From sequence record SRR31156797_5992: a stretch of DNA of 33,248 bases, one strand, 5' to 3'. The stretch's first letter is position 1; the number at the start of each line of letters is the position of its first letter. The notes beneath the pieces were generated by a model. That model was not told the origin of the DNA. It saw nothing but the letters and a program-made list of their open reading frames with translations, and ran no database searches. Of the stretch, positions 22,577 through 27,588 are shown piece by piece. Made by a program: the position numbers and the translations under genes.

Positions 22577-22861
22577 ATGACTAAATCAGAACTTATCGAA
22601 GTAATCTCGACTCAGAATCAAGAACTCACAAAAAAGCAGGTTGAATTCATCGTTAACGGCGTATTCTCCTCAGTAAAAGACGCGCTTAAAACTGGCGACA
22701 AAGTAGAGATCAGAGGCTTCGGAAGCTTTAAGATCAGAGAGAAGAACTCTAAAACTGGGCGCAACCCTAAAACTGGCGACAAAGTTGAAGTACCTTCTAA
22801 GAATGTACCTTACTTTAAGCCTGGTAAAGAGATCAAAGAACTCCTTATCAAAGCTGACTAG
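22577..22861 (+). CDS. ihfB: Integration host factor subunit beta (HU/IHF family)
   Basis: MTKSELIE, VEIRGFGSF, GRNPKTG, VPYFKPGKE. Confidence 0.88.
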   Translation: MTKSELIEVISTQNQELTKKQVEFIVNGVFSSVKDALKTGDKVEIRGFGSFKIREKNSKTGRNPKTGDKVEVPSKNVPYFKPGKEIKELLIKAD

Positions 22862-23015: not shown

Positions 23016-23354
23016 TTAGAACTTTTTGTTTATCAGGGATGATTTTCCACTCTTAGCACTATATTTCTTTCTGAGATGTTCTCTGCATATATTTCTTCGA
23101 ATATCACCATGAATAGAATCTTTCTCAGACATGAGTTTTGCTTCCAGGTCTCTATTCATTATCTCTACATTTTCAATATCTTCTAAAAGCTCTTCTTTGT
23201 TATCTATAAGAGATAATATCTGAGTAAGCTGTTTAAGGCATGATTGATACGAACTAGCTTTTTTCAGCAGTTCATCACTGGACTTAGTGTCCATAAGTTG
23301 CTTATGTATTTTGGTTAATTCAGCATAAAGCTGTATGAAATCGTTTTTAGACAT
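23016..23354 (-). CDS. Helical protein, possible FliT/FlgN-like flagellar chaperone
   Basis: 112 aa amphipathic helices with C-terminal Y...S.LINKK, located downstream of fliD-fliS. Function is inference. Confidence 0.5.
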   Translation of the reverse strand: MSKNDFIQLYAELTKIHKQLMDTKSSDELLKKASSYQSCLKQLTQILSLIDNKEELLEDIENVEIMNRDLEAKLMSEKDSIHGDIRRNICREHLRKKYSAKSGKSSLINKKF

Positions 23355-23422: not shown

Positions 23423-23761
23423 TTATTCAAATGGATAAAACTGCATTACTGCATCAGGGCTAGCCTTTTTATGTGCATTCATTGCGTTCTCTGTATCGTC
23501 CATGAACTGCTTCTTCAGTTCTTCGATCATGTCAAAAGCTTCTTCTTCTGACTGAAGCGAAGAGTTAGAAGATGCTGCAAGTCTGTTTTCGTTTCTAATA
23601 CCGATAACGTCAGCAATATATTGCTTTTCGGAATCGCCATTTTTTTCAGACTTGGCATTATCCTGAACTTTCTGAGAACCCTCAGATTGTGATTTCTTCC
23701 TGTCAACACTGGAGAACTTGTCTCTTAAGTTGATGACAGCGCTTTCGTTTTTAACTACCAT
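23423..23761 (-). CDS. Hypothetical protein with flagellin C-terminal-like segment
   Basis: Starts 6 nt after the fliS stop. Disordered N-half, then ENRLAA...LKKQ...AMNAH....P..V. Confidence 0.65.
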   Translation of the reverse strand: MVVKNESAVINLRDKFSSVDRKKSQSEGSQKVQDNAKSEKNGDSEKQYIADVIGIRNENRLAASSNSSLQSEEEAFDMIEELKKQFMDDTENAMNAHKKASPDAVMQFYPFE

Positions 23762-23767
23762 TAATTT

Positions 23768-24187
23768 TTATCCGGCAAAGTTTATCGATTTTGTTTCTTC
23801 CTGTTCCTGTTTAAGAGTTCCCTCTTCTTTAGCAACAACATCCTTCCAGGCTTCTCTAAGCGAGGACATCAGCTTGACAACACTTTCGATTTTCTCTTTA
23901 TCCTTCTCTTTGTTCGCTTCAACAAGCTGCCATATCATGAAGTCATAAAGTCTCATGAGGTTCTTTGATATTTCGCCTGCGTCCATGTTAAGAGTGGACA
24001 TGAGTTCATAAATGATGTTTTGTGCTTTCATAATGTTATTGTGTGATTCCTGAATGTTTCCATCACCGATGGACTTCTGGGCCACACGCATAAACTTGAT
24101 CGCACCATCATACAGAAGCAGCACCAGCTTTCCTTTGGTTGCTCCCTCTACTTCCTGTTTAATGTAATTCTTGTACGGACTCTGCAT
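23768..24187 (-). CDS. fliS: Flagellar export chaperone FliS
   Basis: PY..Y....V..AT...LVLLLYDGAI, KAQNII.EL...L, NL..LYDFM, LREAW. Confidence 0.95.
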   Translation of the reverse strand: MQSPYKNYIKQEVEGATKGKLVLLLYDGAIKFMRVAQKSIGDGNIQESHNNIMKAQNIIYELMSTLNMDAGEISKNLMRLYDFMIWQLVEANKEKDKEKIESVVKLMSSLREAWKDVVAKEEGTLKQEQEETKSINFAG

Positions 24188-24213: not shown

Positions 24214-26874
24214 TTATCCGGCCGCATTACTAAAATCTGCAGCTTGCGACTGAGCATCAGCTATCGCCATTTCCATAGCGGTAAACTTTGCCCAATATCT
24301 CTCTAATTGCTGTTCAACTCTGTCTTCTTGATCAACAATTCGGTCTTCTACTCTAACTAGTTCATCATATATACTTCCACTGGTTCCAAGTTTGGAACCG
24401 ATCATCCCTTCGTCAGAAGTATATCTATCATTTATCATCTCTGAGTAATATCTGGACCACCCAAGTTCATTTTGGTAGCCGTTATAGTCAACATCTTCAT
24501 CAATATCCGAAGATTGAGAGAAGAAATTGAATACGTCATCAGAGTTATTGCTGAGTGCATCAATAAAGTCACTATTGTCTTTTAATGTTTCAGCTATAGT
24601 TTCATAATCGGTTGAATTCTCTACAAGATAACCTAATTGTTCCTTTTCATAGTCGCCAGCACCATAAACATCTATACCAAGATCTGACATATCATTTATA
24701 GATCCGGCAATACCAGGCCTTACAGAGAAGAAAACATTTCTTAAAGTTGTATCCATATTTTTTAGCTCAGAGCTTCGCCTGATGATGTCTTCTTTAGTGA
24801 GCTGCTCATAATCTTCCTGATAATCCTCTATGTCAGTATCAGACATTGACTCTTTCGCCGTATCAGTGAGGTAGACCATACTGTCCCTGTCGTCCTCATC
24901 GTAGTCAGGAATGTTAAGCTCAGCCATTATCTCATTATAATGAGCTACAAATTTTGCAAAAGCATCTACTGCCTTATCTGTATCAATTGATATCTCGATA
25001 GTAGCAGCAGTGGTGCTCTCACCATTGAGCGCAAGGGTTACACCATTAATAATGTCAGAAACAGAGTTGGAATCTCTCACATAAGTCTGACCATCAACTT
25101 CAACAATTGCACTCTTACCTTCGGTTCCGATAGTGGATGTTGTAGTCGTATCAAGCGTAAGGTTAAATGATTCAAGCAGATTGCTAGTATCAGTTGAGGA
25201 TCCAACTTCTATAGCGTCTGTGCTATCAGATGTAAGAGTGACTTTATCAGAGATAGAGTCGTAAGCCATAGTTACGCCAGCACCGGATTTATTAACTTTT
25301 TCGATAACATCCGATAAAGTATCAACACCAGCATCAACATATATAGAAACTCCGTTTATGGAGAATGTTCCGGAGTATGGATATTCTGTAAATCCTGCAT
25401 TCTGCAAATCTTCTGTAGTATCAATATTTCCGGATGTCTGACCCTGTTCATATGTTCTCTCTGAAGCGCTAAGGTTCATAATGCTCAACAGGTTACTAGT
25501 ATCGGTATATGAGCCGATTGTTATGGTTGTCGCACCTGTGTCATTTGAACGAAGCTCTATTTTATCTGTTGCAGAATCATAGCTTGCCACAACTCCTGCA
25601 CCAGAAGCGTTTATCATACCGATAAGCTCATTTACACTTGTATCGGTATAGTCATCGATTGTGATTTTAGTATCGTTAATAGTAAAATAACCGTTAGAGT
25701 TCTCATCTACAGTTTCACTAAAACCGGCATTTTCCAAGCCTGCCACAGAGACATCAAGCCCTACTCCGCCAGAAACCTGCGCACTAGTATATTTAGTATA
25801 TGTGTCAGAAGATACATTAAGTGATGAGTCCTGATTAATTGAGAATGAACCCTCTGTAAGTATTGCTCCGTCGTATGCCAAAGAGTATGTCGCTCCAGCA
25901 ACAGCGCCTGCGGTCTTATGTAAAACTTTATCTGTTAGGTTTTCAAGAGTATCTGCAACATGGTATTTATAAATAGAATCAGTGGAACTTGTAGTAGGAG
26001 TATAAGCCTCAGCAAAACCGAGCTCATCCCTGAGAGTCCCTGCGTCTGTTCCGCCAAGAGATATCTGGTAATCGTCAACAGTGGTTTCATAAAGAGCGAT
26101 ACTCCAGTCACCTGAATCATACTCAGCTCTGATTGTCACATACTGCTGTGCATTTGTACCCATGGATGAGTTCAAACCAGCATTAATATTAAATTCAAGA
26201 TTAGCAGCGAGAGAAGTTATGTCATCACCGGTGCTTGCGAAAGTCTCATTGATTGTAAGAGTCTGAGCATCACCATTCTCATCAGTGTAAGAGACAGTAA
26301 TATCCCCAGCAAAATCTGCTAGAAGCTCTCCGTAAGAATCGACATTCGCTCCATCTATATCAGCACCTGCGGACTTAGGTATATAAGTCAGTCCGTCAGG
26401 TTTAAGTTCAGTAGTAGAAACATAGTCTGAACCAGAAGCCTCAATAGTAACTTCGCTAACGCCCTCAAGATTATCATCTGACAAACCTGAAACCCCAGTA
26501 ACGACACTGCCAGCATCTACGATTGAAAACCGTGAATAAGTAGACGAAGCCATAGCGTTATTAGCCATCTGGACAACTTTAATTGAATGAGAACCAACAG
26601 CGGCCTCAGCAGTAGCTGAAGCTGTTACAGTTGACTCATTAGTCGAGGTCGTATCTTTAGTTTTAAAGGTTGACTCAAGGCGCAAAGTAAGGAGATCACT
26701 TGTAAGGTTACCTAGCTTGTCGTTGAAATCTTCATAGACCTCTTCCTCAAGCAAAACCTTACTACGATCACCATATAATGCATCGACAGGAACCTGTGCC
26801 TGCTCAATAAGCTGTTCAACGAGAGCGTTTGTATCCATTCCTGATACAATACCACCAACTTGTATTCCGGCCAT
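24214..26874 (-). CDS. fliD: Flagellar filament capping protein FliD (HAP2), enlarged
   Basis: N-terminal GIVSGMDTNALVEQLI, SNSVSDIINGVTLAL, FVAHYN, C-terminal RYWAKFTAME; adjacent to fliS. Confidence 0.92.
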   Translation of the reverse strand: MAGIQVGGIVSGMDTNALVEQLIEQAQVPVDALYGDRSKVLLEEEVYEDFNDKLGNLTSDLLTLRLESTFKTKDTTSTNESTVTASATAEAAVGSHSIKVVQMANNAMASSTYSRFSIVDAGSVVTGVSGLSDDNLEGVSEVTIEASGSDYVSTTELKPDGLTYIPKSAGADIDGANVDSYGELLADFAGDITVSYTDENGDAQTLTINETFASTGDDITSLAANLEFNINAGLNSSMGTNAQQYVTIRAEYDSGDWSIALYETTVDDYQISLGGTDAGTLRDELGFAEAYTPTTSSTDSIYKYHVADTLENLTDKVLHKTAGAVAGATYSLAYDGAILTEGSFSINQDSSLNVSSDTYTKYTSAQVSGGVGLDVSVAGLENAGFSETVDENSNGYFTINDTKITIDDYTDTSVNELIGMINASGAGVVASYDSATDKIELRSNDTGATTITIGSYTDTSNLLSIMNLSASERTYEQGQTSGNIDTTEDLQNAGFTEYPYSGTFSINGVSIYVDAGVDTLSDVIEKVNKSGAGVTMAYDSISDKVTLTSDSTDAIEVGSSTDTSNLLESFNLTLDTTTTSTIGTEGKSAIVEVDGQTYVRDSNSVSDIINGVTLALNGESTTAATIEISIDTDKAVDAFAKFVAHYNEIMAELNIPDYDEDDRDSMVYLTDTAKESMSDTDIEDYQEDYEQLTKEDIIRRSSELKNMDTTLRNVFFSVRPGIAGSINDMSDLGIDVYGAGDYEKEQLGYLVENSTDYETIAETLKDNSDFIDALSNNSDDVFNFFSQSSDIDEDVDYNGYQNELGWSRYYSEMINDRYTSDEGMIGSKLGTSGSIYDELVRVEDRIVDQEDRVEQQLERYWAKFTAMEMAIADAQSQAADFSNAAG

Positions 26875-26900: not shown

Positions 26901-26927
26901 TTATCGGCTGTTTTGTTATTTTCTTTA
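26901..26927 (-). promoter_or_regulatory. Sigma28 (FliA) promoter of the fliD operon
   Basis: TAAA-N15-GCCGATAA, exact consensus, followed by AGGAGG SD. Confidence 0.9.
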
Positions 26928-26970
26928 GAAAAAAATTGCCACAAATGCGAAAATGTATTACAACCGAGGC

Positions 26971-27588
26971 ATGAAAAAAATACTTGTTTACGACTGCGAC
27001 GGTGTCCTCTTCAATAGCGAAAAAGCCATTATCGGCTATTACGACTTTATTTTCGAGAAATTCAACTTACCAGCAATAGACTGGAGCGTTGAACAAAACC
27101 TCAGACTCGCCATGATGAACACCAGCCGGGAAATTATCGAGGCATTCACTAAGGACGACGATATCAGCGAAGAGATGTTACATTTTGCCGCTAACACTAA
27201 TTTCAGGAAATTTCTTCCCCTTATGGAGCCTGCGCCAAACATCTTTGAAACGCTGAAAAAGCTTGAGTCCAAGGGCTACACCCTTACAGTATGCACAAAC
27301 AGAGGTATTTCCCTTGAGTACCTGCTCGAATACTTCGACATGGGAAATTTTTTCGCTTATACAATCTCAACACTAGATGTAGCAAAACCTAAGCCAGATC
27401 CTGAAGGATTGCATAAAATTATGGATAAATTTCAGGTAAAAAATAAAGATCTTCTGTTTGTAGGTGATTCTTTTACAGACTACTACGCAGCGAAAGCAGC
27501 AGACGTGCCTTTTGTCGCTTATGAAAACAAGCTCGAAGAGAGCCCTGTAATGAAGGATCATATGGAGATTTTTGATTATCTCGACTAG
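26971..27588 (+). CDS. HAD family hydrolase (phosphoglycolate phosphatase-like)
   Basis: YDCDGVL, CTN, KPKPDP, FVGDS..D. Start moved to ATG at 26971 (MKKILVYD). Confidence 0.9.
   Translation: MKKILVYDCDGVLFNSEKAIIGYYDFIFEKFNLPAIDWSVEQNLRLAMMNTSREIIEAFTKDDDISEEMLHFAANTNFRKFLPLMEPAPNIFETLKKLESKGYTLTVCTNRGISLEYLLEYFDMGNFFAYTISTLDVAKPKPDPEGLHKIMDKFQVKNKDLLFVGDSFTDYYAAKAADVPFVAYENKLEESPVMKDHMEIFDYLD

Follow-up and report, generated by a model that had tools for sequence, protein, structure and literature searches.

The window analyzed here, a 33,248-nt stretch of DNA from record SRR31156797_5992, carries on its minus strand a set of flagellar genes preceded by a sigma28-type promoter (26901-26927) that lies 27 nt upstream of the fliD start codon. 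In order of transcription, these genes are fliD (24214-26874), encoding an 886-aa filament cap protein (PF02465 and PF07195); fliS (23768-24187), encoding the flagellin chaperone (PF02561, E 1e-40; TIGR00208); the gene under study, hereafter X (P0001; 23423-23761), encoding a 112-aa mini-protein resembling a flagellin tail and delineated by its open reading frame, family conservation and purifying selection; and a gene for a probable FliT (23016-23354), predicted to be a 112-aa protein of three helices. The start codon of X falls 6 nt past the fliS stop, as expected from the initial annotation, which had placed a 112-aa reading frame right after fliS, and X is a genuine gene that has been conserved. 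The operon is bordered by a divergent HAD hydrolase gene (26953-27588) and a convergent HU/IHF-family gene (22577-22861), an order preserved in most of the loci compared (10).

The promoter pattern, which we take to represent the sigma28 consensus, has a single match in the window, at the position given above, and 4 of 100 shuffled sequences yield one. Allowing up to one mismatch, the pattern is found upstream of fliD in 11 of 34 loci, and weaker variants can be seen by eye at the same site in several of the 11 misses that were printed. No excess of sigma70 promoters or terminators was found around X, and a CsrA-type ANGGA motif lies by the X start at just 3 of 33 junctions. The sequence indicates that fliD, fliS, X and the fliT-like gene are co-transcribed as a sigma28-type operon, in agreement with the coexpression proposed at the outset. 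The FliT-like nature suggested for the fourth gene also holds: 7 of 25 orthologs match PF05400 weakly (best E 5e-4) and the three-helix model resembles FliT 3a7m with a TM of 0.66, but an E of 1.8, so that this gene probably encodes FliT. X itself shows no match to PF05400 and is not a FliT by Pfam.

Outside the window, which has no such gene, 11 of the 33 genomes with X (L048:1854-2021, L053:1312-1485, L058:1851-2024, L062:1310-1483 and L068:5783-5965, among others) have a YjfB_motility-like reading frame of 56-61 aa (PF14070), placed either right after X or between it and the fliT-like gene. Eight of nine such frames tested match PF14070, three of them at or above the cut-off, which suggests a fuller fliD-fliS-X-yjfB-fliT module. 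The idea that the YjfB-like protein is a hook- or cap-tail mimic was rejected, as it yielded no PDB match.

Relatives of X were recovered by word search (32) and by profile search among 1.84 billion representatives (15). Those present in databases are hypothetical proteins of Denitrovibrio (Dacet_1451, 71%), Geovibrio, Limisalsivibrio, Deferribacter and Calditerrivibrio, with more distant relatives in Chrysiogenes, Desulfurispira and Desulfurispirillum, and the members of the family are stand-alone proteins of 97-113 aa. Judging from these relatives, the window is probably Denitrovibrio-like. Among 68 genomes of the phylum, many of which may be incomplete, 33 carry X: 30 with one strong copy and three (G006-G008) with a diverged copy, leaving out a weak match inside a 756-aa frame. 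In all 33 carriers, spanning both divergent groups, X lies directly behind fliS, which supports a tight linkage of the two genes. In 30 genomes X starts 2-7 nt past the fliS stop and no AGGAGG precedes it; in the remaining three the distance is 15-28 nt and an AAGGAGG is present.

A fliS gene was detected in 60 of the 68 genomes, and none of the eight genomes without a detected fliS carries X. Conversely, 27 genomes have fliS without X; in the 20 of these loci that were inspected, fliS is directly followed by a FliT-like gene (13) or by other sequence (7). We inferred a quick tree from the FliD C-terminus and FliS (53 rows, seven of them less than half filled; drawn with midpoint rooting and without a clade test), on which the presence and absence of X requires two changes. 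Eighteen rows without X form a single group on this tree (SH-aLRT 96), nested among X-bearing rows, which suggests that X was secondarily lost in one fliS-bearing group; this large group retains fliD. Because X is absent from 27 fliS-bearing genomes, it is an accessory and not an essential checkpoint. Where X is present, it is under purifying selection, with a dN of 0.028 against a dS of 0.68 in one pair of genes; between the window and L001, the C-terminal half shows a pN of 0.09 with saturated pS.

Two kinds of departure from the common arrangement were observed among the loci surveyed. In G067 and G068 (L080:1200-3513 and L081:1450-3769), FliD is short (about 510 versus about 890 aa), FliS is divergent, and FliW and CsrA were not found; their flagellar cluster is possibly of different derivation. 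G009 and G010 (L082:3044-3703 and L083:2768-3403) have no X and encode a FliS with a low-complexity C-terminal extension of about 70 aa.

Beyond the phylum, P0050, P0062 and P0065 were all that the profile searches recovered. No relatives of X were found in phages (query P0001) or plasmids (query P0073), nor any relatives of FliS in viral contigs. In the Atlas, 22 of the 30 nearest clusters are unnamed proteins of 104-116 aa from other phyla, with top scores of 0.95-0.96; an ExsE cluster (0.89, the top named one) and Flagellin_C clusters (0.86-0.87) come from a listing without sequences and serve as leads only. P0065 (L094:6001-6315, 104 aa) is a distant look-alike with a flagellin-like end, with no flagellar genes recognizable by eye within 6 kb. 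Since P0065 stands alone, the linkage to fliS is shown for this one phylum. A sigma70-like TTGACT...TATAAT sequence can be seen by eye upstream of P0065.

The predicted protein divides into two halves. Residues 1-48 (23618-23761) comprise a moderately conserved N-terminal segment with a helix at 12-24 and a variable, poorly conserved linker at 25-48 in which 88% of residues are polar or charged; pLDDT falls below 50 at 27-40. This bears out the polar, disordered N-terminal half described initially, and the whole segment is a candidate export leader. The recognizable motifs, D51-V-I-G-I and a stretch running from E58-N-R-L-A-A to A104-V-M-Q-F-Y109, lie in the second half. The best-conserved block is formed by residues 49-63 (0.73), and E58 and N59 (23585-23590) are the sole invariant residues in alignments of 61 and of 24 members. 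As a monomer, X is modeled as largely unfolded (pLDDT 64, pTM 0.26), with helices at 12-24, 42-65 and 72-94; Foldseek returned no match to it, and all Atlas structure rows for X lie below the naming bar. Conservation across the aligned family reaches about 95% for the C-terminal F-Y-P-F-E/D (23423-23437 in the window), which may be a degron or a block to polymerization. Three distant members do not have it and end in K-L-L, as in flagellin.

The relationship of X to flagellin emerges at the level of the family. Used singly, the X sequence finds no PDB match at E<=10; X and its relatives give nothing above the cut-offs of Pfam and NCBIfam (in one scan, among 25 of 33 weak families listed), and a search of five genomes with the Flagellin_C model (PF00700) misses X even at E<=1. 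Profiles of the family, searched against the PDB at E<=10, retrieve flagellins in 4 of 4 matches (A1, best E 3.7e-3), 17 of 17 (A2, main clade only, 2.6e-4), 23 of 23 (A7, 9e-6) and 34 of 36 (A3, including distant members, 1.1e-7). These flagellin matches always fall at the flagellin C-terminus, over the last 50-65 residues, and include the FliS-bound flagellin chains 5MAW, 6GOW and 1ORY. Against native flagellin tails the real profile scores 13.3 bits, a value that none of 100 profiles with shuffled columns attained (their mean was 1.2 and their maximum 11.0). In hhalign comparisons with native flagellin tails, whole-length X profiles give probabilities of 5% (main clade) and 67%, and the C-terminal half alone gives 50% and 81%.

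When the A3 profile was run over whole genomes, it made 31 secondary matches, mostly in long frames; three that were fetched are flagellin C-termini, and three in G008 lie at the ends of flagellin genes. In addition, the motif ENRL-x-GMS-x-IRDV of the three distant members closely resembles the flagellin EN-x-x-A-x-ES-RIRD. The flagellin likeness of X is thus confirmed as above chance, but at the family level only, so that the C-terminal consensus noted by eye in the initial annotation stands for family profiles and fails for the single sequence and for Pfam Flagellin_C. On this alignment, residues 50-109 (23435-23614) correspond to the final part of D1-C together with the spoke and D0-C of flagellin. 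X can be aligned with the flagellin C-terminal segment that sits on FliS over about 58 residues, up to the C-terminus; the two share the EN-LAA motif and the pattern of spoke and D0-C helix, and X too can be modeled on FliS. In contrast to flagellin, X has no Flagellin_N, D1 core or variable domains, lies below Pfam detection and, in the main clade, carries an extra PFE end. The tail has also drifted, with AHKKA replacing AQANQ and F-Y-P-F-E standing where flagellins end in L-L-x. Two further features of flagellin loci were observed: a flagellin paralogue that has diverged strongly and lost the EN motif from its tail (L024, L030 and L119; frames of 674-678 aa) and a conserved 62-63 aa reading frame starting MAAM-x-VQKKD that adjoins flagellin genes (L011, L012 and L014).

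The N-terminal half of X does not extend this likeness. Against 12 native flagellin N-termini its hhalign probability is 0.14%, and Pfam finds no Flagellin_N (PF00669); a D0-only mini-flagellin with a flagellin-like N-terminus was therefore rejected, and polymerization of X into the filament is unlikely in view of the missing N-terminal helices. A related alternative is that X is an exported minor assembly factor, escorted by FliS to the export gate and acting at the tip with FliD, where it would be a D0-only spacer or would start the nucleation of the filament. Late export substrates show a layout of floppy leader plus chaperone-bound tail, which X shares; co-transcription with fliD, the kept spoke and D0-C segment, and a model of helix 42-65, loop and helix 72-94 resembling the end of flagellin would also suit such a role, and the invariant EN-LAA block could mean subunit-like packing. 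However, X has no N-terminal D0/D1 partner helix and no folded core (pTM 0.26; no Foldseek match), and it is gone from the large fliS-bearing group that retains fliD. We consider this alternative unlikely.

The initial annotation had also likened the DVIGI segment to FlgM. The motif and the layout are indeed present, with D-x-I-x-I in X where native FlgM has D-x-V-x-L-S, but the resemblance finds no statistical support: homology between the N-terminal halves of X and FlgM was not significant (hhalign 0.9-2.6%), nor did the N-terminal half of X match FlgM or FlaG N-termini significantly in these comparisons. That X is a diverged second anti-sigma28 factor, a paralogue of FlgM, could account for its similar size and layout, and whole-profile hhalign against FlgM gives 22% and 11% over 31 gappy columns. 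Yet all 10 genomes tested have a canonical FlgM gene at another place, X has no match to PF04316, FlgM is absent among the PDB matches, and the C-terminal half scores at most 1.7% against the FlgM C-terminal half compared to 50-81% against the flagellin tail, making a FlgM origin very improbable. FlaG is likewise a different family, encoded separately in 5 of 5 genomes tested, and X gives no match to PF03646. Hence X is, as initially expected, no ordinary FlaG or FlgM, both of which its relatives encode separately.

To evaluate FliS as a partner, we modeled FliS residues 1-128 with X residues 46-112. The complex scores 0.63 compared to 0.01 for the best control, with at least 85% of contacts agreeing between runs and a partner pLDDT of at least 66. 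The mark set for this score is reached by 51 of 78 solved pairs, 2 of 108 mismatched pairs and 7 of 44 blind pairs of neighboring genes. In the model, X contacts FliS through residues 67-111 (23429-23563), the stretch that aligns with flagellin D0-C, and the interface positions are more conserved (0.63) than the other positions of 64-112 (0.47). Because similar FliS complexes have already been solved, with 5MAW, 6GOW and 1ORY tied to them in the consulted parts of PMC6070490, the pass may reflect memory of FliS-flagellin structures and denotes likeness, not proof that this copy binds. The model is in keeping with the FliS partnership proposed initially, subject to this caveat, and we regard binding of X to FliS as probable. 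The flagellin D0-C region is described as wrapping FliS, which also contacts the D1 core (sections of PMC6070490 and PMC5466977), and the last flagellin residues are reported to matter for FliS binding in C. jejuni (PMC5466977, in part).

A flagellin-derived remnant might alternatively serve a function unrelated to FliS, for instance with FlhA or a protease as partner, or be near-neutral. The divergence of the tail, the clade-specific, invariant YPFE end that flagellins do not have, and P0065, alone and away from flagellar genes within 6 kb, are consistent with this alternative; a Bdellovibrio protease described as recognizing flagellin C-termini (bioRxiv 10.64898/2026.06.08.730854) points to another possible partner for such tails. 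Strong purifying selection (dN 0.03 versus dS 0.68, one pair), the fixed position behind fliS in both divergent groups and the passing FliS complex model argue against it, and we deem it improbable.

Binding to FliS leaves one feature aside. The conserved block 49-63, and with it E58-N59, lies outside the modeled interface, a point absent from the initial annotation, and FliS binding does not account for it. In the alignment, N59 falls opposite N237 of the 286-aa flagellins, and counting profile positions puts it opposite N255 of the 304-aa B. subtilis flagellin Hag (6GOW); the 286-aa PDB chains presumably share the N237 numbering of T. pallidum. Asparagines N237 in T. pallidum, N255 in B. subtilis and N287 in B. 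burgdorferi are reported as needed for FliW binding (PMC12327847, in part), hinting that E58-N59 may mark a second partner of X. X could then act as a double decoy that mimics the cytoplasmic flagellin pool, binding FliW via E58-N59 and FliS via its tail, so that FliW would be held off CsrA and flagellin translation kept low until X was exported or degraded.

The invariance of the two residues outside the FliS interface and the alignment of N59 with the FliW-essential asparagine fit such a scheme, as does the protection of Hag 240-260 by FliW (as stated in sections of PMC6070490). FliW and CsrA, encoded in 60 of the 68 genomes, accompany X in 32 of 33 carriers, but they are also present in 24 of the 27 fliS-bearing genomes without X, and a co-distribution of X with FliW/CsrA was rejected on these counts. 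Furthermore, the flagellin N-terminus, not detectable in X, is described as sufficient for FliW binding in B. subtilis (PMC6070490, in part) and indispensable in C. jejuni, whose FlaC retains the asparagine and is said not to bind FliW (the relevant passages of PMC5466977). A double decoy is accordingly conceivable but doubtful.

The explanation that we favor, tentatively, is that X is a stand-in for the flagellin tail that buffers FliS. According to this proposal, X would be a FliS client that descends from the C-terminal end of flagellin and whose translation, through re-initiation, keeps pace with that of FliS; in the model, its last 45 or so residues wrap FliS as the flagellin D0-C helices do. 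Lacking the D1 core, the second FliS contact, X should bind FliS more weakly than flagellin, and lacking the N-terminal D0/D1 helices it should not be able to act as a normal filament subunit; together, these two properties would make it a buffer on FliS. Newly made FliS would stay occupied by X until flagellin out-competed it or until X was exported, possibly by means of its own floppy N-terminal half. Delivery of flagellin, or the supply of free FliS able to bind FlgM, would thereby become subject to a threshold or a delay. We counted in favor of this proposal the position behind fliS in every carrier, the flagellin-tail homology, the FliS model with its better conserved interface, the existence of non-flagellin FliS partners, the N-terminal half that does not match flagellin N-termini and the absence of X from genomes without fliS. 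Against it we counted the possible origin of the model's pass in solved structures, the passing blind neighbor pairs, the drift of the tail, the Pfam miss, the 5% whole-length hhalign probability, the conserved block outside the interface and the fliS-bearing genomes without X. With X lost from a large group, we would expect its phenotype to be mild, comparable to that of HP1076 of Helicobacter pylori, for whose deletion PMC7248283 reports no motility phenotype.

Several known systems bear comparison with X. HP1076 is presented there as a non-flagellin FliS partner that mimics part of flagellin, and by description it imitates the D1 contact, whereas X imitates the D0-C tail and sits by fliS. 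FlgM (PF04316), the secreted anti-sigma28 factor, is another non-flagellin partner, its secretion being restrained by FliS in Salmonella (PMC8527033, in part); X is like it in size, floppy N-terminal half, D-x-I/V-x-I motif and probable FliS partnership, and unlike it in that the C-terminal half of X is flagellin-like and the true FlgM is encoded apart, beside flgN. C. jejuni FlaC, in the portions of the literature consulted, is a non-structural flagellin derivative bound by FliS and itself secreted, but it retains both D0/D1 halves. FlaG is reported to antagonize FliS-flagellin delivery at FlhA (PMC11536152), and Shewanella SO3234, between fliD and fliS, occupies the FliT position with a function left undescribed in the corresponding text of PMC3120886.

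ExsE of Pseudomonas aeruginosa is a secreted, chaperone-sequestering regulator. Like X, it is small and disordered, and the proposed common principle is a type III chaperone kept occupied until export; unlike X, it belongs to an injectisome, and alignment-level homology between the two was not seen. A literature search, with subscription journals largely outside its reach, found no paper on the X family or on a stand-alone flagellin-tail partner of FliS, nor is the X family mentioned in the consulted passages of a flagellar gene survey from 2026 (PMC13277936).

The observation made in the initial annotation is thus confirmed, and its interpretation is supported in part. Taken together, these data suggest that X, so far undescribed, is an accessory of the fliDS operon that stems from flagellin, occurs phylum-wide and probably binds FliS: a conserved family in a core flagellar operon that Pfam and NCBIfam have missed, reaching so far across one phylum and dispensable there. 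Cultured carriers, including Denitrovibrio acetiphilus (Dacet_1451), Deferribacter desulfuricans and Desulfurispirillum indicum, make binding assays with purified proteins feasible. It is also conceivable, if unlikely, that X is the prototype of a regulator class, free-standing flagellin-tail mimics that titrate FliS with the D0-C tail and FliW with E58-N59 and are cleared by export; were this so, a secretion-sensing step would be added to the FliS/FliW/CsrA flagellin circuit, and P0065 and the unnamed Atlas clusters of 104-116 aa would be further members or independent inventions. Flagellin supply is governed by few known partners, namely FliS, FliW, CsrA, FlgM and FlaG. If the buffering proposal is true, a flagellin-tail mimic made together with FliS would constitute a new way to meter that supply and a flagellar counterpart to the chaperone-sequestering regulators of injectisomes.
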